This document shows positions 6,896-40,320 of a stretch of 64,000 nt of DNA, piece by piece (the stretch's first letter is position 1; each line of letters opens with the position of its first letter). The notes beneath the pieces were generated by a model that worked only from the letters and a program-made list of their open reading frames with translations, was not told the DNA's origin and searched no databases. Made by a program: the position numbers and the translations under genes. Source of the DNA: a virus; the IMG/VR virus record IMGVR_UViG_3300021420_000018, positions 59,708 through 123,707 of that record; one strand, given 5' to 3'.

Positions 6896-7015
6896 TTTTT
6901 GATTCTCCCTTGTTATTTGAAGCGGGGAGGTCCGTAGAGTCTCCCCGCCCATTGTGGCCGCCACCAACATTTCGACTCTGGGCTCCAAGGGCTATATGGC
7001 GGTCACAAAGATCAA

Positions 7016-10285: not shown

Positions 10286-10327
10286 GTTTTAGCTCCTTCA
10301 GCACATTATATACCGTAGCCGCTAACG

Positions 10328-11206
10328 TTACTTGCTATTTTTCAGTTCGGCTGCGATCTTGCGTCTGATTGTTTTCCACGCCTTTTGTGCGCGGTGCTGA
10401 CCGATCGTTCTCACGCCGCCGCATGGCTGACAAATCGACCGGAATGGTAACTCGCACATGGGGTCCGGATGCTTCCACGGCTGCTTGCACGTCGGACAGG
10501 AGTGGGTATGGTTTTCGACGATCTTGATATCCTCGGACGGCAGATCATCGCGGTCGGTGCCGATCATAAGTTCCACTTCCATCTTGTTGAGGGCGTCGCG
10601 CACGTTATAGCTCGACGCCTTGGCGATAGCTTCAAAGTCCAACGGATAACGGCCACCTTCTTTCTTGTAAATCCTGCGCAGATAATCCTCGATCTCGCCT
10701 TCGAGAGTGTCCTTGTCGAACACCAGGACGCGACATCGCGAAAGGAACCGGCCCTCGAATGCGGTGATGGAGTTACACGTGAAGAACCACACCGTCTTTG
10801 GAAGCATGGCTGTCGAATCCAGCTTCGATAGCAGCGAGTGTTGAGCGGCCAAAGTAATCTGATCCGCTTCGTCGCAGATCACGACGTGGTACGGCGCCGG
10901 CAGCCCTGTTGTGAAGTTGAAAGCCGCGAAGTGGCACATGTAGGCGACCTTCTCCACGGCCTCCAGGTCGCAGCTTTTCGATGGAATCGAATGCACTTCG
11001 GCTTTCAGTTCTTCGGCAATGGCCATAGCCATCGTTGTTTTGCCGCACCCACTCGGGCCCACAAACAGCCACGCGGACTCGAATGGCCGTTTGATGAAGG
11101 CTTCGAGAATCTTCCGCGGCTTATTCAAGCCGACGAACGAAGCCAAGCTGCGGGGGCGGTACTTCTCCGTTAGAGACTGCGGAAATGCGATTTTGGATTG
11201 GCTCAC
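10328..11206 (-). CDS. Clamp-loader-clade AAA+ ATPase (RFC/DnaX/RarA-like) with C-terminal Cys cluster
   Basis: LTEKYRPRSL..FVG; GPSGCGKTT; ICDEAD; SRC motif. Confidence 0.85.
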   Translation of the reverse strand: MSQSKIAFPQSLTEKYRPRSLASFVGLNKPRKILEAFIKRPFESAWLFVGPSGCGKTTMAMAIAEELKAEVHSIPSKSCDLEAVEKVAYMCHFAAFNFTTGLPAPYHVVICDEADQITLAAQHSLLSKLDSTAMLPKTVWFFTCNSITAFEGRFLSRCRVLVFDKDTLEGEIEDYLRRIYKKEGGRYPLDFEAIAKASSYNVRDALNKMEVELMIGTDRDDLPSEDIKIVENHTHSCPTCKQPWKHPDPMCELPFRSICQPCGGVRTIGQHRAQKAWKTIRRKIAAELKNSK

Positions 11207-11465
11207 TGGCGATTGATTCTCCCTTTCTTGAAGTTGAAGTCATACTCCTGTTCAAAATGCTGCTTAGGCTCACCTGGGGATCGCCGAGTGCCCATAACAC
11301 TAGCTTGACGATCGAATCTACACCTACCTTGCGGTAGATATTGGTGCGGTGAGTTTCCACTGTTTTTTCTGAGATATTCAGATGAGCGGCTATCTCTTTG
11401 TTGACCTTGGCCTCACATAACAGCTTGATGATTTCCATTTCGCGGGTACTAAGGTCTAGCGTCAT
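11121..11465 (-). CDS. Solo LuxR-type HTH regulator
   Basis: LSTREMEIIKLL..NKEIAAHLNISEKTVETHRTNIYRK. Confidence 0.85.
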   Translation of the reverse strand: MTLDLSTREMEIIKLLCEAKVNKEIAAHLNISEKTVETHRTNIYRKVGVDSIVKLVLWALGDPQVSLSSILNRSMTSTSRKGESIASEPIQNRISAVSNGEVPPPQLGFVRRLE

Positions 11466-11471
11466 TTTGTA

Positions 11472-11687
11472 TTACTCCAGGTGAATGAGACGCCTTGGTC
11501 GCACTTCCAGTTCCGCGACTCTTCGGCGCAGTGCTTCGATCTCTTCGTTAGCCAGCGCTTTTTCGTGCATCTTGACGCGGCGTTCCCAGTTCTTTAGCGA
11601 CGTATTGAGACGGCGAATGCGCTTGAGCGTGGCCTTGACCATCTCTTGGGCCTCGGCCAGCTTGCGCTTACGTTTCTCGGTGTCCAC
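11472..11687 (-). CDS. Small coiled-coil protein ending ...RPRRLIHLE
   Basis: Heptad pattern; shared C-terminal tag. Confidence 0.7.
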   Translation of the reverse strand: MDTEKRKRKLAEAQEMVKATLKRIRRLNTSLKNWERRVKMHEKALANEEIEALRRRVAELEVRPRRLIHLE

Positions 11688-11691
11688 GGCT

Positions 11692-12789
11692 TTAGACGGA
11701 AACGCCTTGCTTCAACCCCGCCATGACTTTGGCGATGGAATCAGCTTCGGATTGGTCGTCGCGAAGGGCCACGATGCGAGGCTGATACAAGCGGGAGCCG
11801 GTGAAGTTCAGAAACACGACTTCAACCAGGCTGCCAACTTGGATCCCTTTATCCTTGCCGATCATGCTGGCTCTGCCGACTTCGCGCAGCTTGCCGTCAT
11901 CGAGCACGGCGAGCGTTGCTGAGTCGTGGCCCTTGTCGCCAATCCGAATAACTTCACACGTGCAAGACTTTAGAAACTTCAGCTTGAAATCCTGAGTGCT
12001 CACGCCGGCATGGTAGGGCATGTTAGTATTCTTGAATGCCGCGCCTTCTGCTCGTTCCTCTTTCAGGCATTTGAGCGCTTCCCTTTTCGCGACAACCGTT
12101 TTCCATGTCGGAATCACGATGAAGTGCGAACGAGCCTTGCGCTTCGGCAGTAGCTCCAATAGCTCAAGCCGCTGCGAGTAAGGCGCTCCGGAGACTTCCT
12201 TGCCGTTCGCCATGAAGATATCGAAGGCGATGTAGTCGTCGCCAACAATCTCGCCATCGAGGAAAAACGATTGCAGCTTGAGCAGGGCGAGATCCGCGGC
12301 CAGCGCCTGGCTGACAGGCACAGGGTTGCCGAGTTTGTTGTAGCCGGTGTAGACGCCGTTTGCGTATCGCAGTTGTCGGCGCTGGCCATCGATCTTTGGT
12401 TGCATGTAATAGCCCAAGGACTTCACATACGTCCCGGCATCTTCTTCGTTGATCTCGGCCAACTTCGAAACCGGAAACGGCGTCCTGTTGGTCATGGGAG
12501 CAACCGGCAGCGGCGAAGATGGTGCCTCTGCCACTGTGCCGTTCTTAACCAGCGAGTACCCATCTTTCAACTTTCCGGCAAGGATGCTGTTGTATTTCTG
12601 TTCCGCTTCCTCAAGTGGAAGAGGCGTAACTGTTCTAGTGCCGGGATGCAGCGTGTCGCCGATGCGGCCATTCTCGTAGTTGACGACGTAGCCGCCGTCT
12701 TTCTTTTCGAGAAAGAGCCGATATTCTTTGTGGGAACTTCCGCCTAAAGCCAGATCCGAATACTGCAAACGCACGCTCTTTATGCTCAT
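11692..12789 (-). CDS. ATP-dependent DNA ligase with N-terminal WGR-like domain
   Basis: Motifs QPKIDGQR, LDGEI, AFDI, EGAAFK, FKLKF; OB-fold QPR..LRDD; N-terminal SHKEY...YENGRIG. Confidence 0.85.
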   Translation of the reverse strand: MSIKSVRLQYSDLALGGSSHKEYRLFLEKKDGGYVVNYENGRIGDTLHPGTRTVTPLPLEEAEQKYNSILAGKLKDGYSLVKNGTVAEAPSSPLPVAPMTNRTPFPVSKLAEINEEDAGTYVKSLGYYMQPKIDGQRRQLRYANGVYTGYNKLGNPVPVSQALAADLALLKLQSFFLDGEIVGDDYIAFDIFMANGKEVSGAPYSQRLELLELLPKRKARSHFIVIPTWKTVVAKREALKCLKEERAEGAAFKNTNMPYHAGVSTQDFKLKFLKSCTCEVIRIGDKGHDSATLAVLDDGKLREVGRASMIGKDKGIQVGSLVEVVFLNFTGSRLYQPRIVALRDDQSEADSIAKVMAGLKQGVSV

Positions 12790-12804
12790 CTTGATTCTCC
12801 CTTT

Positions 12805-12829
12805 GTCCGGTTCTCGGTCCGGGCTACCG
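12805..12829 (-). promoter_or_regulatory. Leader pseudoknot copy 1 (ligase)
   Basis: CGGT-A-GCCCGG-ACCG-AGAA-CCGGAC, then AAAGGGAGAATC. Confidence 0.6.
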
Positions 12830-13129
12830 TCGATCGATGTTGAACCAGGTCTCGCCCAACTGCTCTTTCTGATCCTTGGTCAGCATTTCGTTGAGTGCCT
12901 CGAACAGCTTGGCCTCGGGAATAGTTTTGGCGGCATCTTTCATAAGACCCGCCAGCTCGTTAGGGTTGAACTGCACCATCTCCAGTTTCTGTTTGTCGGT
13001 GAGTATCCGATTGAGAGTCTCAAAAAGTTTCTCTTCCCTCAGATACTCGGCGGCCGTCATGAATAACTCGGCCGTTTCATCTTCGGTCAGACGTCCCAGG
13101 TCGATTGATTGGGTCCCAAGTCTCAGCAT
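12824..13129 (-). CDS. Hypothetical protein with internal duplication
   Basis: EEKLFETLNRILTDKQK / EAKLFEALNEMLTKDQK; AAGGAG RBS. Confidence 0.75.
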   Translation of the reverse strand: MLRLGTQSIDLGRLTEDETAELFMTAAEYLREEKLFETLNRILTDKQKLEMVQFNPNELAGLMKDAAKTIPEAKLFEALNEMLTKDQKEQLGETWFNIDRR

Positions 13130-13197
13130 TTTCTTTCTCCTTCGGTCGAAGTGACTGCATAGATCGCGGAAGCCGTGATACCAGCAGTAGCTCTCGC

Positions 13198-13401
13198 TCA
13201 GATTCGGACTCCTTCACTGCGCGCCCACCTGTACAATCCCTCATCGTTCAGAATCCACTGGCGACGTTCCTCATCGTTTGAAACCCTGGCGCCGTCAGGT
13301 ATCGTGCCCTTACCGCCGTTGCCATCGTATCGGTAGATTGCGCCGAGGATGGCTTGATCCAGTTCTTTGCGGTGCTGTCGGATGAACTCGCGTATGGTCA
13401 T
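13198..13401 (-). CDS. Hypothetical phage protein
   Basis: MTIREFIRQHRKELD...ERRQWILNDEGLYRWAR; ATGA overlap. Confidence 0.7.
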   Translation of the reverse strand: MTIREFIRQHRKELDQAILGAIYRYDGNGGKGTIPDGARVSNDEERRQWILNDEGLYRWARSEGVRI

Positions 13402-13886
13402 TTGACTGGAACAAGAACGCCGGCCGCATAGAACGGTTCTTTGACGAACGTACTCCGCTCCATGTCGTAATACATCGGCACCGGAACCAAGAGCTCCGGC
13501 ATCGTGGCTATCTTTTCGATATCGAGTACGTCCGAGTGCCTTCCACGAAACGCTTTTGTCCACTCCACGTCATGTTGGTAGCGTTCGTTAAGGTAGGCGA
13601 CGAAGGCCGCGTACTCGTCGGGCATCCAGTGGTACGGGTATTCGTGTGTGTGCCCATTGATTCCGTGGACTGCGGAGCCATCGCGCCACCGGACGACGCA
13701 GCCATTCTGGCGAGCCAGGATGTCGGCCGCGAATCCGTCAGCAGTGCCGTTATAAATCTTGGCCATGTATTCAAGCGTGGAGGGCGAGCCGCGATAGGTT
13801 TCGATTCGGCGAAGGCAGGTATCGCCGAAAACTGCATACTCTACTTCGTCCAAATAACTACACTTCCACTTGAACTGGATTGCCAT
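13398..13886 (-). CDS. Hypothetical protein
   Basis: Extended RBS motif at 13892-13903. Confidence 0.75.
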   Translation of the reverse strand: MAIQFKWKCSYLDEVEYAVFGDTCLRRIETYRGSPSTLEYMAKIYNGTADGFAADILARQNGCVVRWRDGSAVHGINGHTHEYPYHWMPDEYAAFVAYLNERYQHDVEWTKAFRGRHSDVLDIEKIATMPELLVPVPMYYDMERSTFVKEPFYAAGVLVPVK

Positions 13887-13903
13887 TTTTTGATTCTCCC
13901 TTT

Positions 13904-13928
13904 GCGCTCTTCCCGGTGAGCACTACCG
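13904..13928 (-). promoter_or_regulatory. Leader pseudoknot copy 2
   Basis: CGGT-A-GTGCTC-ACCG-GGAA-GAGCGC, then AAAGGGAGAATC. Confidence 0.65.
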
Positions 13929-14237
13929 TGTTCTGAAAGCGTCTATCTCCGGATCGCCGTATCGGACGCGAAAAGCTTTCACCGCGGCGTTGAGAAGTTT
14001 CCATGAAGTTTGGGCAATGATGGTTTTACCGTCTGCGGTTTGGATAGCCACGCAAACCGCTGCATTGCCGCTCGTCATGCCGTGCGGCAACACGCCGATG
14101 CGTCCTATCATGGCCATGTCAGGTGATGCGTTGTCTTTCAAATCAGACCACGGATCGGTGTCAAGATTCATGGTTACTTGTAGCGGCGTCATTCCCGGCA
14201 CCAGACGCGGCGTGCGATTGTCGCCTTGCTCTGTCAT
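13923..14237 (-). CDS. Hypothetical protein
   Basis: GGAGG RBS; LPHGMTSG..V...DG..IIAQTS. Confidence 0.7.
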   Translation of the reverse strand: MTEQGDNRTPRLVPGMTPLQVTMNLDTDPWSDLKDNASPDMAMIGRIGVLPHGMTSGNAAVCVAIQTADGKTIIAQTSWKLLNAAVKAFRVRYGDPEIDAFRTR

Positions 14238-15300
14238 TTTTGTTTGCCTCCAGTTCTCGAACGAAGTCGTCGTAGTTTAATAGGTGCGCGCCGATATGGC
14301 CGACGCGCAGTTTGGGCCTGTAGACATCGGCGGTCAAGCCGCGCTGATGAGACCCGATCCAAATGGTGCGCATGTCGCCCTTCTCGTCACGGCTGAAACG
14401 ATCCGAACGCAGATGGCGAAAGTGGGCCCGCACGTCGAATCTGACAGAGACGTGCCGGCCGGTCGGTGCGCTCCGCTGTAGATAACGGTACCGCGGTGCG
14501 TGGATGGACGTGATGTAGTAGGGACGGTCGGATTTCGGCAGACTCTTCAGTTCCGCGCCGTACTTCTGCCGATGCTCCGGTCTGATTTTTACAAACGTCA
14601 CGTTCTCGCTCATCAAGAAATGGCACAGGTTCACCGACGCGTGGTAGAGCCGCTTGGTCTGCGCAATCTCTTTATCCGCCCACCCAGGAGGCTCGTTCTC
14701 TTGCCGATAACCGCTGCCGAACTGAGTCTTCGGCCAGTCTTTGGTGTCCATGACGATTGTGAACGTGTAACCTTCTTTTGTGAACCAATCCGCCGACAAG
14801 GTATAAGGAGCCGAGACCGTTGCTTCACGTGAAGCACTGGCAGCCAGTAGCCGGCTACTCTGATCGCGCAGAAGCACGCCGCGATAGTCGGAACCGCCCG
14901 GGACCGGTTCTGCAAAGGCGAGGCCGGTCCTCAATGATTCCTTGTCCACGACGTTCAGCACGTGGTCGTAGTCGTAATGGAGACGGCCATCGAACTCGAT
15001 GAACGTCAGTGGATGCGGCACGCGAGGAAATGCCGTTTCATCCAGCTCCAGGTCGCGCAGTTCACTCACCTGATCGACTTCCAGGAAGTAGTGCACCGCT
15101 CGCGGCAGATCATTCTGAATGCACCAGGTGTGAACTACTTCCGGTTTCAGCTTGTCCGCTAGAGTCTTCAGATCAATCTGCCGGTATAGGCTCGCCACGT
15201 GGTGCTTGAAGTGCTGTTGGATGAAATCAAAGAACATATAACCTGCGTTGCGCTTCCCGATTGTAAATGCGTTGGCACGATTTGCACCGTCGCCAGCCAC
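14161..15300 (-). CDS. Hypothetical phage protein
   Basis: 379-aa ORF; C-terminal VRAHFR...WIGSHQRG motif. Confidence 0.7.
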   Translation of the reverse strand: MAGDGANRANAFTIGKRNAGYMFFDFIQQHFKHHVASLYRQIDLKTLADKLKPEVVHTWCIQNDLPRAVHYFLEVDQVSELRDLELDETAFPRVPHPLTFIEFDGRLHYDYDHVLNVVDKESLRTGLAFAEPVPGGSDYRGVLLRDQSSRLLAASASREATVSAPYTLSADWFTKEGYTFTIVMDTKDWPKTQFGSGYRQENEPPGWADKEIAQTKRLYHASVNLCHFLMSENVTFVKIRPEHRQKYGAELKSLPKSDRPYYITSIHAPRYRYLQRSAPTGRHVSVRFDVRAHFRHLRSDRFSRDEKGDMRTIWIGSHQRGLTADVYRPKLRVGHIGAHLLNYDDFVRELEANKNDRARRQSHAASGAGNDAATSNHES

Positions 15301-15393
15301 GCGAATCGATGCGCGTATTTCGTTTGTTGTAGCTGTGGCCTCGTGGACAGCGGCTCTTGAGTGCGTTCCTCTGGCTGAGCACTGGACGGTGAT

Positions 15394-15867
15394 TCACGAT
15401 GCCCTCATCACCGCACGCAGTTTCTCCGGCGCTTTCTGCGTGAGACCTTTATAGTTCAGGTGAACCACGAGATGGTAGTAGAGACTCTGGCTGGCGTGAG
15501 CCTGATAGACGGCCGCTAGCCCTTGGTTGGCAACGCCTGGTGGTTCAGGACCGCAATCGAAAAAGGCACAGCCGAACGGTGCAACGTCATGGATGTCACA
15601 CCGTTCGTCTTTTGTTAAGTGGATGCAGGAGCCATCCGGTTTCGTGGCAGGAACTAGAGTGGGAATGCGAAACGACTTGCCACGCTTCATGACCAGGGCG
15701 CCGGGAGAGGCCAGCAGGTTCTCTTCGGCCCAACGGAAAGGATCCGCGCCGGCTGGAATCATTCGCTCCAGGTCGGCAGGAATCAGATAGCCGGGCATCA
15801 CTTTGCAGTTGAGCCGGCACATCTTGCAGCTACAGTTGGTACGTGGGGCACCGAACTCTGTTCTCAT
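15394..15867 (-). CDS. Cys-cluster (YkgJ-like) protein
   Basis: CSCKMCRLNC...CIHL..ERCDIH..APFGC. Confidence 0.7.
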   Translation of the reverse strand: MRTEFGAPRTNCSCKMCRLNCKVMPGYLIPADLERMIPAGADPFRWAEENLLASPGALVMKRGKSFRIPTLVPATKPDGSCIHLTKDERCDIHDVAPFGCAFFDCGPEPPGVANQGLAAVYQAHASQSLYYHLVVHLNYKGLTQKAPEKLRAVMRAS

Positions 15868-16127
15868 CGTGGGACCGCCTTTCTATCCGCTCGTTTGAAA
15901 GCCAGGAAGGAAACATCTTCCGGACTCAATCCGACACCTTGGAAGTTGTTGTTGCCGTTGAGCACAGCGAGTCGCTCGATCTCAACGGCATGACGATAGC
16001 CAGGAGCCTCGCGTTCTTCCTCGGCGCACGTTATACAAATCGTGTCCGTGTTGAACTTCGACATCGTGGATGGAATGTGCGCGAGGCTAGCCGCACAGCG
16101 AACGCAGAACCGCGGCCACGCTCTCAT
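15864..16127 (-). CDS. Small Zn-finger protein
   Basis: CVRC...MSKFNTDTICITC; ATGA overlaps. Confidence 0.7.
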   Translation of the reverse strand: MRAWPRFCVRCAASLAHIPSTMSKFNTDTICITCAEEEREAPGYRHAVEIERLAVLNGNNNFQGVGLSPEDVSFLAFKRADRKAVPR

Positions 16128-16381
16128 GGCTTCTCCCCGTGGTAGTGCTCTGGCTTTCGATGGCTGGCAATCAGCTTCTCCAGCGCATTCCGGTACTGCG
16201 GATACCGTCTGAGCCAAAGCTCTACGCAGCGTTGTGAGCCAAGGACGACCGCAACGTCTCCGACTGGTTTGTGGCAACACGTCCAGCCGAATACGAGTAT
16301 GCCGTCGCCGCGGTCCTGGCCATAGATCGCTTGCTGGCCTTCTTCGATGGTGCCGCCGCAAGGTTCGCAGATCATGCGCAT
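16124..16381 (-). CDS. Hypothetical protein
   Basis: GGAGGTG RBS; coupled ORF. Confidence 0.65.
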   Translation of the reverse strand: MRMICEPCGGTIEEGQQAIYGQDRGDGILVFGWTCCHKPVGDVAVVLGSQRCVELWLRRYPQYRNALEKLIASHRKPEHYHGEKP

Positions 16382-16803
16382 TCACCTCCGCACATCAGCA
16401 GTTGGTGACGGCAGTTCGGGCATTCGGCCCAATCACAACCGTCATGGTGGTACTGCCCCGGCAGCACGTTGCAGTCGTGGCAGCGCACATTCTCCCTCGG
16501 ACTGAACCGCGTCTCGGCCGTGTCGAATCGTTTTTCTTGGCCGTAAGGAATCGGATCCAGGAAGAAACTAATCTGGCCGCGAGGCGGGAGAATGATCCCG
16601 CCCGCAGACTCGGTCTTGTGCTCGACCCATTCCACGTAGCCCAGGCGTGTATCACCATTGGCTACGTCATATTGCCAATCCTCAAGTGGGTAAGTATTGG
16701 GGCTGGCGATATTCTTGGTGTCGTCTTTGTGGAACTCGACGGGCACCTTGATGCACCCGTCTGCCGTGAGCATGTCTTGGTTGCAGGCTGGACAGATGGA
16801 CAT
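16372..16803 (-). CDS. Cys/His-rich Zn-binding protein
   Basis: CPAC...CHDC..GQYHH.GCD.AECPNC..QLLMC. Confidence 0.75.
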   Translation of the reverse strand: MSICPACNQDMLTADGCIKVPVEFHKDDTKNIASPNTYPLEDWQYDVANGDTRLGYVEWVEHKTESAGGIILPPRGQISFFLDPIPYGQEKRFDTAETRFSPRENVRCHDCNVLPGQYHHDGCDWAECPNCRHQLLMCGGECA

Positions 16804-17648
16804 TAGGCCGCTTTGCCTTTCTTGGCCTTCGCCTGCTTCGCCGGCGCCGCGGGAGTGTCCAGCTTGATCGTGCGGCGCGGCTTCGGCGTGGCCAAGGAAG
16901 CAGACAGCGCTGCCATGAGATCTTGCACCGGTTGTGCTGTTACCGCGCTGACCGGCGTGGGTGCCGCGATGGACTTGTCGATCTTGGAAGCGATCAACGT
17001 GTTGAGCCGTTGGTAGTAGCCATCTTCGAAAGTTTCGGGATTGAACTCAGAGTCCAGGCTCTCCGCAAGCTGCCTCGCCAGCTTCAACTCCGATGCTGTG
17101 AGCGAGACCGCCTGCAGATCATCGAACTCTGCGACCTTGGCTATCTCAGTCTGATACCACAGGTAGTGAAGAATGAGACCGTTGCCTTGGGGCCGCAAGA
17201 GGATCATGTTCTCGCGGCCTGACTTGGTAAGCTGCGCGATTGCCACGCGGCCGGTGTCGGTCAGTGTCTTGACGAGTAGGCCGTAGGCTTTCATGCCGAC
17301 ATCTTCCGGCAACAGATAAAACGATTCGGCGAGATAGAGCGAATCGACGTCCGACCACTTCACGCATTCGGTGATCTCCAGCACTTTGCCGCTCGCCGGC
17401 GTGATGCCTTCGATCTCTTCGTCGGTGATCTCGACGATTCGGCCATCGGTTTGGTAGCCCCTGAAGATTTCGGATGCTTCCAACATCTTGGAACAGGCAG
17501 GGCAGTATTTCGGAGATTTTACTGCGCCTTTGCACTCCGTGTGGAACGTGTGCAGCTCGACCCGCTTATCCCGGGCTGCGACATTGAGATAGACGGGGAT
17601 ATTCAGTAGCCCAAACGAAAGATGTCCCTTCCAGACTTTGTGAGCCAT
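16803..17648 (-). CDS. ku: Ku DNA end-binding protein
   Basis: VWKGHLSFGLLNIPVYL; YC..C; I.RGY; FYLLP..G.KAY.LL; F.PE.FED.Y. Confidence 0.95.
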   Translation of the reverse strand: MAHKVWKGHLSFGLLNIPVYLNVAARDKRVELHTFHTECKGAVKSPKYCPACSKMLEASEIFRGYQTDGRIVEITDEEIEGITPASGKVLEITECVKWSDVDSLYLAESFYLLPEDVGMKAYGLLVKTLTDTGRVAIAQLTKSGRENMILLRPQGNGLILHYLWYQTEIAKVAEFDDLQAVSLTASELKLARQLAESLDSEFNPETFEDGYYQRLNTLIASKIDKSIAAPTPVSAVTAQPVQDLMAALSASLATPKPRRTIKLDTPAAPAKQAKAKKGKAA

Positions 17649-17672
17649 TTCGATTCTCCCTTTTATTATTTT

Positions 17673-17700
17673 GGGCGCATTCTCGGCTGCGCCCTTGCCG
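17673..17700 (-). promoter_or_regulatory. Leader pseudoknot copy 3 (Ku)
   Basis: CGGC-AA-GGGCGCA-GCCG-AGAA-TGCGCCC, short A-rich linker, then AAAGGGAGAATC. Confidence 0.65.
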
Positions 17701-17732
17701 CACCTGGACAGTGGGTTCCAGACCTGATGTGG

Positions 17733-18089
17733 TTATGGATTAAGTCTGCGATACTCCGTGTTCAACTTGTCGAAAAGCTGCCGAAGTTCAAATGGGATAC
17801 GAGCGACTCCCGGACTGATGGTGCCATTGATGATCTCCTTGCGAAAGACCAGCTCGAACTGCTCTGCTACCTTCGCCAAGAGATCGACTTTGTGAATGTC
17901 CAAACACATTTCGGCCGGAGGATAATACTCGACTTGGTTCCGCATTCCGTAAAGCAAACCGCCCTCTTCAGACTGCCGGCGACACAGAGGATCGTAATGC
18001 GCCCGCGCCGCTTCGAAAAGGGCGTCTACTTCTTCCGCGTCGAACTCAACCCTGGCCTCCGGCAGGTAGATCAGCTTTTGCAGCTTCAT
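17733..18089 (-). CDS. Hypothetical protein
   Basis: Extended RBS motif directly before ATG 18089. Confidence 0.75.
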   Translation of the reverse strand: MKLQKLIYLPEARVEFDAEEVDALFEAARAHYDPLCRRQSEEGGLLYGMRNQVEYYPPAEMCLDIHKVDLLAKVAEQFELVFRKEIINGTISPGVARIPFELRQLFDKLNTEYRRLNP

Positions 18090-18258
18090 GATTCTCCCTT
18101 TCTTGCTTCTGCTTAACCTTAACCGCATGCTTGCTGGCTTTGCGTTTCCACTTCTCCTCTCTAGAGATCGCCTCAGCGCTTATGTGCGAGCCAGCATCTA
18201 GTTCTTCTTTCGGAACCACGCGCCAACGGCGTTGCTGATTAGGCGGTACTCTTTTCAT
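18046..18258 (-). CDS. Small basic hypothetical protein
   Basis: First ORF after the consensus promoter. Confidence 0.45.
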   Translation of the reverse strand: MKRVPPNQQRRWRVVPKEELDAGSHISAEAISREEKWKRKASKHAVKVKQKQERENHEAAKADLPAGGQG

Positions 18259-18274
18259 GGTTGCACTCTCTCTT

Positions 18275-18303
18275 ATTATAGGTTAGCTACTACGTTATGT
18301 CAA
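18275..18303 (-). promoter_or_regulatory. Consensus sigma70 promoter
   Basis: TTGACA-TAACGTAGTAGCTAACC(17)-TATAAT. Confidence 0.85.
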
Positions 18304-19367
18304 TCGAACGTGATCCTGCGCTTGGGTTGCAGCACCACGAGTGTATCGAGCGCAGCTTTGATGTTTTCAAAGCCCTGCCTTACGTGTTCCCGCAGTTCAT
18401 CATTGGTTCGCAGAGTCACAGCGTTGTGGCCGCCGATCAGGTCTTTCGCCCGATCGACCAGAACCTTCATCTGTAGATCGTTGCCGATGTTGCGCGGGTC
18501 AAAGGTCTCCAAGAACTGCTGGAACTTCGTGATTGAGCCGTCTTGGAATGTTTTCATTCGGCCTTCTTCGTTGGGCGCAAGTCTGTCTGCCAGGTGATTG
18601 ACGAACTCCGACATGTGCCCGCGGAGCAGTTGTCTGTGAACTTGGGTCAGCTCAGCCCAACTCTCTTGCGCCTTTCTGCGTTCCTCGTCGGCCACCTCTT
18701 TACTGATGCCGGCAAGGTTCGGTGCGCTATCGACGTAGACGAATCGCCAATCGACATGGAACGCTGCCATCAGCTCGTCCCTGGTCATGAAGTCGTCGTC
18801 GTTGAACAGAGGACCAAGCCGTTTGGCGGATTCTTCTTTGATCTCGTCGTAACGCTTGCCCAAAGACTTGATGAAAGGCTGGCAGGCCGCGATGCCTTCC
18901 TTGAGTGTGGTGTTGACTTGCTCGACAAACGCGGTCGGCATGATATAGACGCCGCGCTTGATCTGCGATGGAAGAGCCAGGCGTTCGACGTACTGGCGCA
19001 TTTTGCCGTACCGCGACATGATCTCGTCCAACTCTTCGGCTTCGATCAGGCGCTTGGTCAGGTGCAACCATTCCTTATCGACTTGGGCCTCTTTTGCTCT
19101 GCCGCGGGTGTCTCTCTCGACATTGACATCGATGTTCGCGGTGTCTACTTTGCGGCGATTGCCGGTGCCGTGAAACGTGAGGACCATGACGACTGATTTC
19201 GCCATGATGTCTTTCGGCGAAACAAACTCCGGATTCTTCGGCAGTTTGATCGCCGGCAACGGCGGCAACGGTTTGATTTTCTTTTTTGGCGGTAGCGGAT
19301 TTGCCCTGCGAGCCCGGATCGTTTCCCATGCCTTCTTTGCTGCGGCGGTACGTGCTGCTGCTGTCAT
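18300..19367 (-). CDS. DUF3150-like helical protein
   Basis: Helical composition and AAA/DUF1257/DUF2997 context; start reassigned to ATG 19367 behind the extended RBS; ends QPKRRITFD. Confidence 0.65.
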   Translation of the reverse strand: MTAAARTAAAKKAWETIRARRANPLPPKKKIKPLPPLPAIKLPKNPEFVSPKDIMAKSVVMVLTFHGTGNRRKVDTANIDVNVERDTRGRAKEAQVDKEWLHLTKRLIEAEELDEIMSRYGKMRQYVERLALPSQIKRGVYIMPTAFVEQVNTTLKEGIAACQPFIKSLGKRYDEIKEESAKRLGPLFNDDDFMTRDELMAAFHVDWRFVYVDSAPNLAGISKEVADEERRKAQESWAELTQVHRQLLRGHMSEFVNHLADRLAPNEEGRMKTFQDGSITKFQQFLETFDPRNIGNDLQMKVLVDRAKDLIGGHNAVTLRTNDELREHVRQGFENIKAALDTLVVLQPKRRITFD

Positions 19368-19382
19368 TGTGATTCTCCCTTT

Positions 19383-19407
19383 GCCGGATTGTCGGCTCCG
19401 GCTGCCG
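19383..19407 (-). promoter_or_regulatory. Leader pseudoknot copy 4
   Basis: CGGC-A-GCCGGA-GCCG-ACAA-TCCGGC, then AAAGGGAGAATC. Confidence 0.65.
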
Positions 19408-19413
19408 ATGTTG

Positions 19414-19791
19414 TTACCGGCCCTGTCCGCGCAGAATAGCGGCATCGAGCCTGGGTATGAGCGAATCGATCTCCTGCTTCGCTCGCATTGCATCGTTGGC
19501 TACAGGGACTCCGTAATCGCCATCTTTGACATCCACATAGCCTTCGATCAGTTCGTTGATTCTCTCCATCGCCTCAGACGCCTGAATCATGGCTGTGAGC
19601 ATGATCTGGTGAGTCTCAGCATCTGAGCCAAGGGAAAGGCTGAGGACCAATCGCAAAGCATCCTCGAATCGCTTCGATGGCTCACCAAGAATGACAAACT
19701 CTTGAGGAGCCAAGTTGTAGCGATCAAGAAACGCGCGAATGATTCGTCGCGCTTCCGTTCGCTGTCCTGCCAGTTCTGTTAGATCGATCAT
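19414..19791 (-). CDS. Hypothetical protein
   Basis: ATGA overlap with upstream gene. Confidence 0.65.
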   Translation of the reverse strand: MIDLTELAGQRTEARRIIRAFLDRYNLAPQEFVILGEPSKRFEDALRLVLSLSLGSDAETHQIMLTAMIQASEAMERINELIEGYVDVKDGDYGVPVANDAMRAKQEIDSLIPRLDAAILRGQGR

Positions 19792-20069
19792 GCGAACAGC
19801 CTCTTTTCGAGCCACTCGTGTTCGGCTTTGAGCGCTGCGGCTCTGGTTGTGAACGGGCCCAGGATGGGGTTATCGACGTCCAGGTTGAACTGCTTGATCG
19901 CCGGCGACATGTCTGCTATCCAGCGGCCGGATGGCGTTGGCTCAACCAAGCTAGCTCTGGTGATCTCCATCGACGCGTCCGGGAATACGTCCCATAGCGC
20001 GTCGTCGTAGATCGCCAGGATCGTGCCGTTAGGCGCGACTCTTAACTTGAACGTGCTCTGGCTTTTCAT
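19788..20069 (-). CDS. Small hypothetical protein
   Basis: ITRASLVEP..GRW.ADM...GPF.TR..AL.AE..WL. Confidence 0.7.
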   Translation of the reverse strand: MKSQSTFKLRVAPNGTILAIYDDALWDVFPDASMEITRASLVEPTPSGRWIADMSPAIKQFNLDVDNPILGPFTTRAAALKAEHEWLEKRLFA

Positions 20070-20220
20070 ACATCTCCGACGTTTCAACATCGCTCACCTT
20101 CTTCCCGAGTCCTTCTTCGAACTCGCGAGTTAGTTCTTTGCACGACCGGCCCTTCACGCCCTTCACGGTAACTTTGGCGTTGCCGTCAGGCGCGATGCGG
20201 ATGATCACCGTCTCTTCCAT
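20029..20220 (-). CDS. DUF2997 family protein
   Basis: IRIAPDG...VTVKGVKGRSC..LT..FEE.LG.....TSEMY. Confidence 0.85.
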   Translation of the reverse strand: MEETVIIRIAPDGNAKVTVKGVKGRSCKELTREFEEGLGKKVSDVETSEMYEKPEHVQVKSRA

Positions 20221-20221
20221 G

Positions 20222-20635
20222 TCAATCCTCCTCAAGATTGATCTTGCGTTTTGGATTCAACTCCAGCGTCGGTACTTCCTGATCCTCGCGGATGCGTTGC
20301 AGTTCCGCTTGTTGTCTGAGCCCTTTTCTGATGCGATCCACTTCCGCTGCCGTGGCAGGACGTAGACGTTCGGCGGCTTGATAGAACTCAAACACAGCCC
20401 ATACGTGGTCGCACCACAGGTTCGACGATATGGACTGCATTCCATTGATCTGGCCATTCGGACAATCGCACCCCCAGCGGTCGTCCGGGCTTAAGGTGAC
20501 GGTCCACCAACAGCTACTGTTGGCGAAGGCTTTCCATTTACGTTGGCCGAACTCGTTGACGTAGACAGGTGGGTAGAAACGACCGTCAACGGTACGTGCC
20601 GCGACAAACTCAACTCGCGTGATTGTGTATTGCAA
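20222..20635 (-). CDS. SWIM Zn-finger protein
   Basis: WGCDCP...WCDH; ends NPKRKINLEED. Confidence 0.7.
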   Translation of the reverse strand: MQYTITRVEFVAARTVDGRFYPPVYVNEFGQRKWKAFANSSCWWTVTLSPDDRWGCDCPNGQINGMQSISSNLWCDHVWAVFEFYQAAERLRPATAAEVDRIRKGLRQQAELQRIREDQEVPTLELNPKRKINLEED

Positions 20636-20653
20636 CTTTTGTTGCCTCGCAAC

Positions 20654-21061
20654 TTAAGTCGTGCGGGGACGAGTCGCAGTGACCGTGACGTAGCCCTGCT
20701 CGTCGGTTGTCGTCTTAACCTTGAAGCCTTTCTTCTTCCACTGCCTCTTGGTGTATTCGGTGGTGTAGGCTTGCTTCAGTCTCATCGCATCCTGCCCAAC
20801 GAAGTCTTGAAGACCGTAGCCTCGATTGTAAAAATCAGTCTCCAGGCGGAAGCGGCCCGGGCGACCGGTTTCAGAGACGCCGATTTCCATCGCTTGACTG
20901 TTGTTAGGGACGCGAATCGCGTGCTGGCAGCGGCCGTTCTGTCCGGCGAACTGCCTGAACGTTTTCTGGCCCTTGATGTACTCCAATCCAAGGCTCTTTG
21001 CCGCTTCTTCAAGAGCGCCAAGATCGGTGACTTCAAGTTCTATCTGACTGGTGTGGCTCAT
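20654..21061 (-). CDS. DUF1257 (Ycf35-like) family protein
   Basis: MSHTSQIELEVTD..AL..A...LG; EIGV; D.Y; LKQAY. Confidence 0.85.
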   Translation of the reverse strand: MSHTSQIELEVTDLGALEEAAKSLGLEYIKGQKTFRQFAGQNGRCQHAIRVPNNSQAMEIGVSETGRPGRFRLETDFYNRGYGLQDFVGQDAMRLKQAYTTEYTKRQWKKKGFKVKTTTDEQGYVTVTATRPRTT

Positions 21062-21071
21062 CTGTTGCCTC

Positions 21072-21440
21072 CTATTCGAGTGTGATTTTTCTTTTTGGCC
21101 TAAGAACTATTTCCGGTTCCTGCGGCTTCCTGCTTTCGGCACGATGATTAACTTCCTTTATGAGCTGCGCCTTTTTCCCTTCTCCTTGTCTGTGAAAGAT
21201 GAACGCTTGAGCAATGTGTTCGCATGGTGGCGGAACCCATGCAGGCGTCCCTAGCGCGTCTCGTGATGCCGGCGTCCAGGAAGTCTCTTGGCAACTCCCT
21301 GTGCCGCGTGCACCACAATCACACTGCCAAGTCTTGTCCGGGTTGATGCGGGCGATGGCTGGTTCGACATCGCCCCCACTGATTCTGCTGACAGCAAACT
21401 CTACGGTGCCGTCAGGATGTCGCCATACTCGTAGGATCAT
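21072..21440 (-). CDS. SWIM Zn-finger protein
   Basis: WQCDCG...PCEHI; ends RPKRKITLE. Confidence 0.7.
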   Translation of the reverse strand: MILRVWRHPDGTVEFAVSRISGGDVEPAIARINPDKTWQCDCGARGTGSCQETSWTPASRDALGTPAWVPPPCEHIAQAFIFHRQGEGKKAQLIKEVNHRAESRKPQEPEIVLRPKRKITLE

Positions 21441-21443
21441 CGT

Positions 21444-21782
21444 TCAATCCAGGTGGATGAGACGCCGCGTTTGGAGAACGAAGTACGGCTGTGGTGGCGG
21501 CGCGACTGCCGGTGCTCCAGGCCGCCGCCGCGTGGCTGATTGGAATGCGTGCTCTTGTGATGGAGTCGTGCGGGTTTTGTCCACAGGCTCCATCAGCTTA
21601 ACCTGCTCGATGTGCCAACAATCGGCACGCGGCCGCTGTTTGTTGAAGATCCAGCCGCCACAGCTGCATCCCCAGGTGCCGTCTACTTTCATGGCGACGA
21701 CGCGTTTTTTGTCAGGCTCGCTCCGGCTTTCGACTTCCCACCGCGCGATCCACACACCGTTTGCTTCGAGTTTGTTGGGCAT
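21444..21782 (-). CDS. SWIM Zn-finger protein
   Basis: WGCSCGGW...DCWHI; ends QTRRLIHLD. Confidence 0.75.
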   Translation of the reverse strand: MPNKLEANGVWIARWEVESRSEPDKKRVVAMKVDGTWGCSCGGWIFNKQRPRADCWHIEQVKLMEPVDKTRTTPSQEHAFQSATRRRPGAPAVAPPPQPYFVLQTRRLIHLD

Positions 21783-21784
21783 GT

Positions 21785-23371
21785 TCAGTTCACCTGGCCT
21801 TTCGGCGTGCTTCCGCCGCTGCCAGAGGGATCGATCTTGCGACGTCCCTTCACGGCAGCGACCACGCCGACGATCTCGACTTGCGGTTCAGGCTCGAGCC
21901 CTTCCGGCACGTGGTACAGGCCGGAGTAGCTCGCCGAAATGAACTTCTGATCGGCTTGACGGCGCAGATCATCCAGCTTGTCGCGGGAAGAAATGGACAC
22001 CGGCACAATGTACTTCGCCGCTTCCTCGATCGAAGTGCTCAGCACATGCGCGTTGTAACAGCAGTTGCGGATTTCGGCAGGCGTCCAGCCCGTATCGTCA
22101 GGGCGCTTGCCTTTCACATTCCACTTCGCTTCGTACAAGTTCCAGGCCGCTTCCTTCTCAGGCTTGGTCGGCAGATCGAAGAAGAAGGTGCCCGAGCGGA
22201 ACCGGCGCCGCATCTCCGGAGGCAGGCTGTCGAAACGATTGCACGTCGCGATGTAGTAGACCTGGCCCTGGCTGACGGCATGCACCACCTTGAGCGCGGT
22301 GCGGATGTTCTCGCCGGACTGCCCCACAAGCGAGCCCTTCATCCCGGCGAGATCGAAGAAGATCAGCGGCACTTGCCATTCGTTGGCAATCGCTTTCGCA
22401 AGCAGCGTCTTGCCAGAGCCGGCAACGCCCAGGAACGCGCTGCCTTCGGCTTCGGTCTCTTCCATGTCGGTCAGGAGTGCGCCAATCATTTCGGTTGTCG
22501 TGTCTCCTGTGCCTACGGCGCCGAAGTTGGCCATGTGCTTGTCGATCTCATCGATGAATACGACGGCACGGCGTCTGAGAGGACCCTGTCCGCGGCGCAG
22601 ATGGAATCCCTTGCAGTTTCCAAGGCCGATCACGCTGCTGAACGAATCCTTTCCGCGCCAGATGCTCAGGCCTGGCGTCTGTTCGATCTGTTGTCGTTTG
22701 CGTTCCCACAACGCTTCGATATCGAGACCAGCTTTGGTGATGCTCATCGCGCAGACTTGCTCTGCCGGAAACGCAGCGAGGCCGGAAAGCGCTTCGACCG
22801 CACGCTCCACGACTTCGGCCTTTGGCTTCTCTTCGGCTTTGATCAGATTCGCCGCAAGATAGGTTTCGCCCACTATGCCTGCCAGTTGCGCAGCATCGGG
22901 AAGCGGCTCGTCCAGCACCAAAACATCTTGCGCGAGTTCTGGCGGCAGAGTAATCGCTGGACCCACCATGACCAGCGTGCGGGTATCCTCTTTGAACTTG
23001 TCGCGCAAGTTCCAGACAGCTTGGACCACTCGGCTGTCGTGGAAATAGCGATTCAGGTTGGCCATGAAGACGACCGTGCCGGCTGGAATGGCGTTCTTCG
23101 GCGCGATCTTCTTGAGCATGTCGAGAGGATCTTCCAGACGGTTGGCATCTTCGCCGGATCCAGTGATGAGTGACTTCGCGACATTGCGGCCCCGCGGATC
23201 GTTGCAGCCAACAACGCCGTTGACGATATCCCACAGGATCATCGGCGACTCGCCATGCGTCCGGTCGTTCACGATGTTGGCGATGGTCGCTGCATAATCG
23301 GCGGTCCGTACAAAAATGAGCGGAGTCGAAACCTTGCGTGCTGCTTTGAATGTTTCAAGGAAAGTTGGCAT
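21785..23371 (-). CDS. Ycf46-like AAA ATPase
   Basis: Degenerate N-terminal AAA domain; GVAGSGKTLLAKA; SLVGQS; ATCN..SLPPE.RRRF..FFFDLP; WT.AEI. Confidence 0.85.
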   Translation of the reverse strand: MPTFLETFKAARKVSTPLIFVRTADYAATIANIVNDRTHGESPMILWDIVNGVVGCNDPRGRNVAKSLITGSGEDANRLEDPLDMLKKIAPKNAIPAGTVVFMANLNRYFHDSRVVQAVWNLRDKFKEDTRTLVMVGPAITLPPELAQDVLVLDEPLPDAAQLAGIVGETYLAANLIKAEEKPKAEVVERAVEALSGLAAFPAEQVCAMSITKAGLDIEALWERKRQQIEQTPGLSIWRGKDSFSSVIGLGNCKGFHLRRGQGPLRRRAVVFIDEIDKHMANFGAVGTGDTTTEMIGALLTDMEETEAEGSAFLGVAGSGKTLLAKAIANEWQVPLIFFDLAGMKGSLVGQSGENIRTALKVVHAVSQGQVYYIATCNRFDSLPPEMRRRFRSGTFFFDLPTKPEKEAAWNLYEAKWNVKGKRPDDTGWTPAEIRNCCYNAHVLSTSIEEAAKYIVPVSISSRDKLDDLRRQADQKFISASYSGLYHVPEGLEPEPQVEIVGVVAAVKGRRKIDPSGSGGSTPKGQVN

Positions 23372-23392
23372 CTTGATTCTCCCTTTCGTTTT

Positions 23393-23420
23393 GCGATTTC
23401 TTTGCGGCGAATCGCTGCCG
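23393..23420 (-). promoter_or_regulatory. Leader pseudoknot copy 5 (AAA ATPase)
   Basis: CGGC-A-GCGATTC-GCCG-CAAA-GAAATCGC, short linker, then extended RBS. Confidence 0.6.
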
Positions 23421-23762
23421 TTATTTGGCCCTCTTATCCTGTAGCATAAAGCGCCGCATGTGAGCGTACATCCAGCGCCCGCCCGGGGTAAGGTCGCGGC
23501 GTAGCTTCTTGAGCTGTCTGACCAAGAGTGCCCGTCGAATCATGATGTAGATTTCCATCGGTGGAGTGATGATCGCGAACGGAGCACAAATCATCATTCC
23601 CGTTGCGTACAGTATGATCCGGATTTGTTTCAGGCTGAACAGACTCGGCATGTTGCCGTAAGGGATTTGCTTCCGCATCTCTTTCCGGTCTTGGCTCCAT
23701 ACCCACAGCAACCCGAGGAGCATCCACGCCAGAGTCATGATCGCGCCAGGATTCACATTCAT
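23421..23762 (-). CDS. Membrane protein
   Basis: Two hydrophobic segments; extended RBS at 23767-23777. Confidence 0.7.
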   Translation of the reverse strand: MNVNPGAIMTLAWMLLGLLWVWSQDRKEMRKQIPYGNMPSLFSLKQIRIILYATGMMICAPFAIITPPMEIYIMIRRALLVRQLKKLRRDLTPGGRWMYAHMRRFMLQDKRAK

Positions 23763-23777
23763 GGTCGATTCTCCCTT

Positions 23778-23803
23778 GCGCCGTTCGCGGTCGGCAGCTA
23801 CCG
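23778..23803 (-). promoter_or_regulatory. Leader pseudoknot copy 6
   Basis: CGGT-A-GCTGCCG-ACCG-CGAA-CGGCGC, then AAGGGAGAATC. Confidence 0.6.
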
Positions 23804-24013
23804 GTGCAACCACTCTCCCAAGAGCGGTAAGTAGATGGCAACTGCGGCTACGATGGCAAGTAGCGCCAGCGCGTAGGCCACGATCGCCGCAACGTTGACA
23901 ACGCCTTTTAGGTTTATGGTAGTGAAGTGGCGGCCGCTTCCACTACACAGTGTACATTCGTCGGTGCCGCGGCCGTGGCAGGCGGGACACGGAATACTCT
24001 TATGCTGTCGCAT
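23798..24013 (-). CDS. Small CxxCxGxG Zn-finger membrane protein
   Basis: CPACHGRG..CTLCSGSG plus a hydrophobic segment. Confidence 0.65.
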   Translation of the reverse strand: MRQHKSIPCPACHGRGTDECTLCSGSGRHFTTINLKGVVNVAAIVAYALALLAIVAAVAIYLPLLGEWLHR

Positions 24014-24326
24014 TTTTGGCCTCTTGGACTATCCAATCACGGATGGCTTTGATAGCGTCACTCGCCATCTCGATCGTGCTTGGCCAATGCCACTTGTATA
24101 CGCTTCCGATCACGTACGCCGTGTTGCCGCCGGCCGCCACGATCACGGTGTAGTCGGCGTGATGAGTTTCGATAACCTGCGCGGGATTGCCGTGACTGAA
24201 CACGGCAAAGTCTCCAGTTCTGCCATGCTCGATCATTTCCGCGAGCGTGTTAACGAACTCCACTGGGTTGCGGCGAATGTCGCCGATGGCATCGTTGCGA
24301 ATAATCACCGTGGTTTGGTTTCCCAT
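24000..24326 (-). CDS. Hypothetical protein
   Basis: MGNQTTVIIRNDA behind an AAAAGGAG RBS. Confidence 0.65.
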   Translation of the reverse strand: MGNQTTVIIRNDAIGDIRRNPVEFVNTLAEMIEHGRTGDFAVFSHGNPAQVIETHHADYTVIVAAGGNTAYVIGSVYKWHWPSTIEMASDAIKAIRDWIVQEAKNATA

Positions 24327-24489
24327 CAGCTTTTCTCCTTTTTGCGAAAGACTTGCGGAAAGAACAACGTGAGCACCAGATGCAGGGCCGACAGGATCAG
24401 CCCTGCGGAAACGCACGCCGTGATTACGGCGAGCGCGAACTTAACCTTCGCGTCACTGTTAAAAACCCACGACCAAAACTGATATTCGG

Positions 24490-24756
24490 TCATAGCCCAC
24501 CCCAACGATACAGTTCGTCACGGCTTTGAAGGGCAGCCTTCTTCGCCTCAGTGCCAGCGCACCAGAGTTTGTGGCTTTGCCAACCGGCAATAAATGTCGC
24601 CACGCCGGTCAATCCATCGATCAGATGGTGAACGACGCCAGCGAGCGATTGATTAAGCAACGCATCAGACACGCCCTCGATCGCGCCACAAAGAGCCATG
24701 AAGAACAGAAATCCAAACAAGATTCCGTACGTCCCATTACGTCTTGTATGGCTCAT
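24490..24756 (-). CDS. Small membrane protein
   Basis: Two hydrophobic segments; ATGA overlap. Confidence 0.55.
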   Translation of the reverse strand: MSHTRRNGTYGILFGFLFFMALCGAIEGVSDALLNQSLAGVVHHLIDGLTGVATFIAGWQSHKLWCAGTEAKKAALQSRDELYRWGGL

Positions 24757-40319: not shown

Positions 40320-40320
40320 T

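Follow-up and report, generated by a model that had tools for sequence, protein, structure and literature searches.

The DNA analysed here (the window) is a stretch of 64,000 nucleotides (nt) from an IMG/VR virus record (IMGVR_UViG_3300021420_000018), and corresponds to positions 59708-123707 of C17, a 123.7-kb contig with a G+C content of 54.8% versus ~58.7% for the 6.8-Mb assembly in which it is found. The genes of C17 are phage-like, encoding ParB-like proteins, a clamp loader, a terminase-like protein, a tail protein and a GIY-YIG homing endonuclease, and the window thus belongs to phage DNA, in the form either of a prophage or of a phage contig binned with its host. On its minus strand a short cassette is repeated six times (w1 to w6), each time between the stop codon of one gene and the Shine-Dalgarno (SD) sequence of the next, and each copy contains a hairpin whose stem differs from those of all of the others. 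Coordinates refer to the whole window, and the copies are read as minus-strand mRNA, the cassette genes all being on this strand.

The six sites share one mRNA layout, CGGY-A(A)-X-RCCG-NNAA-X', followed by a ribosome-binding site (RBS) motif and then by the start codon (Y, pyrimidine; R, purine; N, any base). The outer blocks CGGY and RCCG are the candidate arms of stem 1, and X and X' those of stem 2. The conserved start-associated motif AAAGGGAGAATC (for example at 12793..12804 on the minus strand) is found after every copy; the end of X' is separated by 0-9 nt from its (A)AAGGGAGAAUC (mRNA), and the AUG lies 3-7 nt further on. A preliminary description of this DNA had reported the pattern at these six sites, and when re-read from the minus-strand sequence it was borne out at all of them (Table 1). 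CGGT is accompanied by ACCG in 3/3 copies and CGGC by GCCG in 3/3 copies, and X pairs with X' perfectly in four copies, with a single mismatch or bulge in the remaining two. In three copies, CGG-TAG is the last codon and stop of the upstream open reading frame (ORF), and in a fourth, w5, the upstream stop abuts the element. The stop codon of w1, w2 and w6 occupies the same place in the predicted fold: its U closes stem 1, its A constitutes loop 1 and its G opens stem 2.

Table 1. The six cassette copies, the RBS motif and other features of the window.
Feature	Position (strand)	Sequence or description	Upstream stop or spacer	RBS motif	Start codon and downstream gene
w1	12805..12829 (-)	CGGU-A-GCCCGG-ACCG-AGAA-CCGGAC; stem 2 with one internal C/A mismatch	UAG of 101-aa ORF (12824-13129) at the stem 1/loop 1/stem 2 junction	12793-12804	ATG 12789, ATP-dependent DNA ligase
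w2	13904..13928 (-)	CGGU-A-GUGCUC-ACCG-GGAA-GAGCGC; stem 2 perfect	UAG of 104-aa ORF (13923-14237) within the copy	13892-13903	ATG 13886, 162-aa protein without family hit
w3	17673..17700 (-)	CGGC-AA-GGGCGCA-GCCG-AGAA-UGCGCCC; stem 2 perfect	9-nt A-rich spacer between copy and RBS	17652-17663	ATG 17648, Ku
w4	19383..19407 (-)	CGGC-A-GCCGGA-GCCG-ACAA-UCCGGC; stem 2 perfect	TAA ending 6 nt before the copy	19371-19382	ATG 19367, 355-aa protein without family hit
w5	23393..23420 (-)	CGGC-A-GCGAUU-C-GCCG-CAAAGA-AAUCGC; stem 2 perfect	TAA (23421-23423), ending at 23421 and abutting the copy	23375-23386	ATG 23371, AAA ATPase, 528 aa
w6	23778..23803 (-)	CGGU-A-GCUGCCG-ACCG-CGAA-CGGCGC; one bulged C in stem 2	UAG of 71-aa ORF (23798-24013) within the copy	23767-23777 (AAGGGAGAATC)	ATG 23762, 113-aa protein without family hit
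First G of GGGAGAATC	4008, 6909, 9074, 11223, 12801, 13900, 17660, 18098, 19379, 23383, 23775 (-); 52224 (+)
ATP-dependent DNA ligase gene	11692-12789 (-)
Ku gene	16803-17648 (-)
Sigma-70 consensus promoter	18275-18303 (-)	TTGACA, 17 nt, TATAAT; 12/12
GIY-YIG-type homing endonuclease gene	37445-38491 (-)	PHROG 314, E 3e-29

One close relative was found, G201, a complete 164,879-bp IMG/VR phage with direct terminal repeats, which is syntenic with the window over the cassette region with an amino-acid identity of 33-83% per gene (72% for the AAA ATPase). Its sites are named g1 and g3 to g6, where g3 is the Ku site and g5 and g6 are the orthologs of w5 and w6.

Occurrence of the cassette and its RBS motif

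As an exact 12-mer, AAAGGGAGAATC occurs 14 times in the assembly, with 12 of these copies on C17. Among 200 genomes of the family, RBS motifs of this type show no enrichment, with a maximum of 3 in any single genome. A joint descriptor that combines the RBS with NNAA, RCCG and CGGY-A (GATTCTCCCTT N5-17 TTNNCGGY N4-9 TRCCG) gave 6 matches in the assembly, all on a single strand; these are exactly w1 to w6, and the search of the genome that had been proposed for the element thus recovered the six sites and none besides. The reversed control gave 0 matches and the search of other genomes of the phylum 0/400. With a looser descriptor that dispenses with the RBS, 107 matches were obtained genome-wide; 5 are on C17, and all 5 lie directly before the RBS motif.

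Between 11 and 25.7 kb of the window, the cassette is present at 6/8 copies of AAGGGAGAATC, the exceptions being those at 18098 and 11223. The junctions that carry it have gaps of 34-84 nt, and overlapping or close junctions (≤18 nt) carry none. Further copies of AAAGGGAGAATC without CGGY or RCCG lie at 4008, 6909, 9074, 11223 and 18098 (-) and at 52224 (+) in the window, and at C17:30184 and C17:59391. Unrelated hairpins are found directly upstream of the RBS at 52224 (+) (GGGTGCCGAG..CTCGGCACCC) and at 6909 (-) (GCGGGGAG..CTCCCCGC), and another upstream of the RBS at C17:30184 (CCGGTCCGG..CCGGACCGG), which is conserved in G201. The RBS at 18098 is the sole copy of AAAGGGAGAATC in the cassette stretch without a hairpin. 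Upstream of this RBS and of the Ku gene, in a 207-nt gap just after the stop codon of the 355-aa gene, is a perfect sigma-70 consensus promoter (Table 1), which may provide an internal transcription start within the module. The 3' end of 16S rRNA, with which anti-SD pairing would be assessed, was not found in the assembly.

Stem 2 is a covarying hairpin of the sense strand

The X/X' hairpin is well supported by comparison of the copies. X is different in every one of them, and 5/6 pairs of stem 2 show changes on both sides in a six-row alignment (w1, w2, w3, w4, w6 and g6; w3 is partly out of register). The remainder were compared by hand, as MAFFT alignments shifted the register of w3, w5 and g5. 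Pairs fill 93.3% of the pairing cells of the two stems taken together, a value favoured by the derivation of the structure from the same sequences, versus 74.2% in shuffles (0/500 of which reach the observed value) and 24-44% with the partner slid. At the Ku site the window has GCGCA/UGCGC where G201 has GCGAC/GU(U)CGC, a compensated swap. The w5 copy and its G201 ortholog show two differences in 28 nt, both at unpaired positions, and g6 is without the bulged C of w6 and gives a clean fold (-10.1).

If w2, w6 and g6 are read on the opposite strand, their G·U pairs become A/C mismatches; the fold is hence that of the sense strand, with RNA as the simplest reading. Folded in isolation, the hairpin is the minimum-energy structure for w2 (-8.0), w3 (-13.8), w4 (-10.7) and g6, with z-scores of -0.9 to -2.2 (w4 -2.2). 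Within a context of 130 nt, its predicted probability is 0.99 in w2, 0.99 in w3 and 0.96 in w4. Taken together with the descriptor search, the paired changes in stem 2 uphold the earlier proposal of a cis element that is repeated on the sense strand, linked to a conserved RBS and built on a covarying hairpin.

Potential of the cassette to form a pseudoknot

The arm order of an H-type pseudoknot (stem 1 5', stem 2 5', stem 1 3', stem 2 3') is present in 6/6 window copies and in g5, g6 and g1, as a potential of the sequence. The stem 1 arms CGGY and RCCG are Watson-Crick complementary in 6/6 window copies and in the two orthologs g5 and g6, where stem 1 is intact. In g1, which follows a small ORF ending in CGG-UAG and precedes an inserted HNH endonuclease gene, CGGU stands with GCCG, giving a U·G pair, and stem 2 has only 4 bp. 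The variable Y-R pair is U-A in three window copies and C-G in three (UA in four rows and CG in two rows of the six-row alignment), and C is never combined with A in either genome.

The first loop consists of 1-2 A over a 6-7-bp stem 2, with the AA loop going with a 7-bp stem, and the second of 4-6 nt, ending in A, over the 4-bp stem 1. Such loop lengths are feasible in a pseudoknot of this type, for which the gene 32 leader is a precedent, and those of the cassette would fit a compact H-type knot. RCCG is always located at the 5' side of the hairpin loop, with an offset of 0-1 nt, where coaxial stacking needs it, and the last loop ends in AA. The ensembles of nested structures leave RCCG largely unpaired (probability 0.56-1.0) and thus free to pair, and CGGY is unpaired in part (0.25-0.86). 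The minimum-energy fold of w5 and g5 in isolation is the CGGC/GCCG helix itself. A rough energy estimate, in which an assumed pseudoknot penalty is added to the stacking of stem 1 and which is not the output of a pseudoknot program, gives the knot an advantage of 0 to -2.7 kcal/mol over the best nested fold in 8/9 copies. Closure of the hairpin into a compact H-type knot is plausible, with about equal chances for and against.

A number of observations weigh against the knot, and against any function that is built upon it. Three of the four pairs of stem 1 are invariant and only Y-R covaries, so the original account of six covarying pseudoknots stands for stem 2 (5/6 pairs) and was overstated for stem 1. 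The 3+3 match of Y with R has a chance probability of 1 in 20, and in the copies of the T type the U of stem 1 is imposed by the UAG stop. Because these three pairs are fixed while X is saturated with changes, the stem 1 match may represent two conserved blocks instead of a helix. In w6 the pseudoknot estimate is unfavourable (+1.6 kcal/mol), and the gain elsewhere is marginal. For stem 2, single-copy folding gives z-scores of +0.2 to -2.2, near those of shuffles, and in the 130-nt context the probability of the hairpin is moderate in w1 (0.54) and low in w5 (0.24) and w6 (0.00), with another fold predicted for w6.

The sites in G201 add to these points. Across the five of them stem 1 is kept at 2, wobbled at 1 and degraded at 2. 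At g3, GCCG-CUAA is kept and the flank reads AGGUACC, which allows at best ~3 stem 1 pairs (a G·U among them) and leaves a loop 1 of 3 nt. At g4 there is neither an X' nor a pseudoknot topology, and GUGUCCGCCG is paired with CGGCGGACAC, which lies upstream, to form a nested helix of 10 bp (z -3.8); the GCCG of g4 does have a partner inside this helix, a different upstream CGGC, and this was counted in favour of stem 1. The ligase gene of G201 is preceded by an AT-rich hairpin only, with neither CGGY nor RCCG. The persistence of covariation in homologs, on which the preliminary description would have let the pseudoknot stand or fall, is divided in G201: stem 2 is compensated at Ku, and stem 1 is degraded at 2/5 sites. 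Proper covariation statistics are impossible because only two genomes carry the element.

Gene content at the cassette junctions of G201

At positions 40088-41045 of the G201 record, a small Zn-ribbon-like ORF with CGG-TAG at its end is inserted, together with a gene for an HNH endonuclease, at the cassette equivalent to w1, and this insertion separates the homologue of the 101-aa gene from the ligase. The endonuclease gene has no ATG, GTG or TTG start codon after its RBS-like block. Gene content also differs at w2 and w4; the window has an extra 133-aa ORF at w4, and the genes around w2 are without a match in G201.

Searches for related elements

The whole window gave 0 matches to Rfam at the gathering score, and at E≤10 the 11-25 kb stretch gave five weak matches, none of them at a cassette site; the comparison with Rfam suggested for the cassettes hence assigned them to no family. 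No transfer RNA (tRNA) or transfer-messenger RNA (tmRNA) was found by a scan for these genes. Megablast of 13.5 kb against GenBank phages returned no match, and the Ku protein had no relative among the viral contigs searched. The loci of distant AAA ATPases that were inspected have no such element, whether at RBS-like sites or ahead of the gene for the ATPase. When viral contigs were scanned again with a looser pattern, 15 stretches came up, and inspection of the 14 outside G201 showed no X/X' pairing.

No sigma-70-like promoter or gene-strand terminator was detected at the six sites, and the regional counts of these signals are no higher than in shuffles (5 vs 6.2 and 16 vs 17.7); one weak terminator-like match lies on the opposite strand at w5. 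Keyword searching of the open-access literature, which is no proof of absence, brought to light no account of phage pseudoknots that occur in multiple copies next to an RBS.

Gene neighbourhood and distant relatives

The ATP-dependent DNA ligase and Ku genes constitute a non-homologous end-joining pair, which adjoins the clamp loader and AAA ATPase genes. A GIY-YIG-type homing endonuclease gene lies further along the window (Table 1). Apart from G201, the AAA ATPase has four relatives among viral contigs, at 34-39% identity. The best metagenome contig has 43% among the matches listed, and genome contigs have 40-48%, in bins assigned mostly to Bryobacteraceae, Solibacteraceae and Pyrinomonadaceae, with one to Deltaproteobacteria. 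These distant relatives (34-48%) thus comprise jumbo-phage contigs and bins labelled mostly Acidobacteriota.

One distant jumbo phage (IMGVR_UViG_3300029288_000054, 388 kb) has its own repeated module before RBSs, at ~9100-14900. It consists of a conserved TCGTGCTATAAC block with short inverted repeats on either side, 25-35 nt upstream of AGGAGAA, and from its sequence the block looks like a phage-specific promoter.

A soil DNA run that is possibly the source of the window also contains a 21-kb contig ~80-88% identical to parts of 11500-24500, at ~2.5 times the depth; near w6, at a 7-nt deletion, this contig agrees with G201. That soil sample therefore seems to harbour two related phages. A second DNA run contains short, near-identical pieces, and no RNA run was listed among those that contain the phage. 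In the contigs of the two runs, no new variant was present at the cassette sites among the differences listed.

Discussion

The sequence comparisons show the repeat, its position from stop codon to SD sequence, the covarying stem 2 and the strand, and we regard the element as a real intercistronic RNA cassette that acts in cis and is specific to this phage lineage. We tentatively propose, at a little short of an even chance, that the six copies, in a polycistronic replication/repair mRNA (clamp loader, ligase, Ku and AAA ATPase), close into a pseudoknot and work as outlined here; the pairing of stem 1 in vivo, like each functional step, is what we infer from the arrangement of the element. The cassette begins at or just after the upstream stop codon with the CGGY-A flank, continues as a variable 6-7-bp hairpin with an RCCG-NNAA loop, and ends against the strong, conserved SD block AAAGGGAGAATC. 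Pairing of the loop RCCG with the CGGY flank would close the hairpin into a compact H-type pseudoknot. Once folded, the module might keep the downstream RBS from pairing with upstream coding RNA, and it might also serve as a barrier to decay or as a stable end. A ribosome that reaches the UAG or UAA stop in or beside the module would melt the fold, and the neighbourhood of the RBS would be transiently remodelled; because the terminating ribosome must unwind the fold, translation of the upstream gene would be coupled to the state of the RNA beside the RBS. By analogy with tisB, the knot could in addition serve as a standby site or as a docking site for protein S1.

The main alternative, which we consider doubtful, is a plain hairpin operator, in which the CGGYAG flank and the RCCG-NNAA loop are contacted by a phage or host RNA-binding protein that co-regulates the replication/repair genes. 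Invariant CGG/CCG letters around a freely varying X are typical of sequence-specific recognition, the six sites are immediately 5' of the RBS in one functional gene set, and at the G201 Ku site RCCG and NNAA persist despite the decay of CGGY. There are also precedents in T4: the gp43 operator is a hairpin together with an RBS-overlapping sequence, and RegA represses ~30 mRNAs (PMC3014915). The former resembles the cassette in having a hairpin just upstream of an RBS to which it is functionally joined, and the latter in having one regulator for many RBS regions (PMC3014915). However, the gp43 operator is a single autoregulatory site, described with no pseudoknot in the relevant parts of that review, and the RegA sites are unstructured and A+U-rich (PMC3014915). 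No candidate RNA-binding protein has been identified, and protein contacts alone would leave unexplained the complementarity of the two blocks, the covariation of Y with R and the occurrence of U·G but never C/A. A knot, moreover, needs just such a loop, of 8 nt and with its first four bases matching the flank.

The pseudoknot reading also has a stronger form, which we regard as unlikely. Here true knots around the upstream stop would form a multi-copy translational device: the ribosome would melt the knot, and the refolded knot would dock S1/30S beside an exceptionally strong SD sequence and set the restart rate for each cistron. Such a 'pseudoknot regulon' would, if true, be without a described phage counterpart. 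The analogy is with protein S1, which binds H-type pseudoknots (a ligand found by systematic evolution of ligands by exponential enrichment, SELEX), and with tisB, whose +42 mRNA requires an upstream knot for its standby translation (PMC7708055). An H-type knot located before the start codon, as in tisB, could recruit the 30S subunit via protein S1, for the cassettes by analogy only. The tisB knot, as presented in the sections of PMC7708055 that concern it, differs in belonging to a single mRNA and in lying ~100 nt from a sequestered RBS, whereas the RBS of the cassette is open and adjacent.

A generic intercistronic stabiliser hairpin, which blocks exonucleases or insulates the RBS and in which the CGGY...RCCG match is a historical consequence of cassette duplication, appears quite improbable. 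The unrelated hairpins before other copies of the RBS motif (52224(+), 6909(-), C17:30184 and the G201 sites) suggest that a hairpin at this place is a general habit of the phage, and the G201 ligase site has its AT-rich hairpin without CGGY; the decay of stem 1 at two G201 sites points the same way. Yet 14 flank and loop positions are fixed in the six paralogs, although X has diverged to saturation. That these 14 positions and the size of the loop are fixed, and that RCCG is placed at its 5' side, argues for selection on the letters of flank and loop.

A site at the level of DNA (an operator, a phage-polymerase promoter or a PeSL-like recombination cassette that moves genes at junctions) is the least probable, and very much so: CGG...CCG is an inverted repeat, the gene content of the window and G201 differs exactly at three junctions (w1, w2 and w4) and a distant jumbo relative has a repeated promoter-like block before its RBSs, but the CGG-CCG spacing is variable (15-17 nt overall), unlike what a dimeric DNA operator would lead one to expect, the pairing of X with X' through G·U is sensible only for one strand as RNA, all copies have one orientation relative to the genes, and the six sites are without sigma-70-like promoter or gene-strand terminator, the single weak terminator at w5 being on the opposite strand.

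The pseudoknot that was first likened to the cassettes is that of the T2/T4 gene 32 leader, which according to Du, Giedroc and Hoffman reportedly has a 1-nt loop over a 7-bp stem 2. The fold predicted for the cassettes has the same compact H-type geometry in a phage mRNA leader, with coaxial stems, a 1-nt A first loop and an A-containing second loop (gene 32 knot, PDB 2tpk). The gene 32 knot is a single site that nucleates the binding of gp32 for autoregulation; it lies 67 nt before the AUG, ahead of an unstructured A+U-rich tract to which gp32 binds cooperatively (PMC3014915). The cassettes, in contrast, are six paralogs that lie 0-9 nt before the SD sequence, overlap upstream stops and precede unrelated downstream genes. 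These encode the ligase, Ku, the AAA ATPase and proteins without assigned function, and no link to a single-stranded DNA-binding protein (SSB) was found among them, so that the likeness is confined to the geometry.

In their logic, the closest systems would seem to be the SAS/ESAS repeats of mycobacteriophages, of which the cassette is not a member. In cluster K, a 13-bp SAS (GGGATAGGAGCCC) precedes start codons, and the ESAS has conserved 17-bp imperfect inverted repeats with a 4-13-bp spacer (PMC3203893). There are 11-19 copies of SAS per genome, confined to the non-structural part, and about half have an upstream inverted repeat (PMC3203893; 2025 survey, PMC12699233). A role in translation is suspected, and no mechanism is established in the relevant parts of these two accounts (PMC3203893, PMC12699233). 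The likeness lies in a conserved asymmetric repeat of 12-13 nt that includes the SD sequence and is found shortly before the start codons of some of the genes. GGGATAGGAGCCC is, however, unrelated to AAAGGGAGAATC, and the host phylum and phage type are different. The 17-bp ESAS arms have a conserved consensus, whereas the 6-7-nt cassette arms are variable, with conservation instead in the loop and flank, which are mutually complementary. The PeSL (promoter-early stem-loop) cassettes of T4-type phages are likewise repeated intergenic stem-loop modules at junctions where close relatives differ in gene content (PMC2839356, PMC4122927). These combine an early sigma-70-type promoter with a terminator stem-loop, whereas the cassettes carry no gene-strand promoter or terminator signal and are fused to the RBS. 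We rejected membership in this group, as no promoter-like or gene-strand terminator-like match is present at the six sites. The cassette thus matches no Rfam family, and is related in logic to known start-associated repeats while differing from them in sequence and arms.

Repeated start-associated cassettes are known in few phage groups (SAS/ESAS, PeSL), none of them with an established mechanism. The present set is unusually legible, with a stem that is free to vary, a loop and flank that are fixed and complementary, and three stop codons built into the fold. If it is only a hairpin, the cassette would amount to an intercistronic stabiliser of the ordinary kind, in a soil phage about which little is known. 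In the part of a 2010 review that deals with them, the pseudoknots of phage translational control amount essentially to that of gene 32 (PMC3014915). If the knot is real, the cassette would add a multi-copy, RBS-adjacent pseudoknot to that list, and would offer small modular insulator parts.

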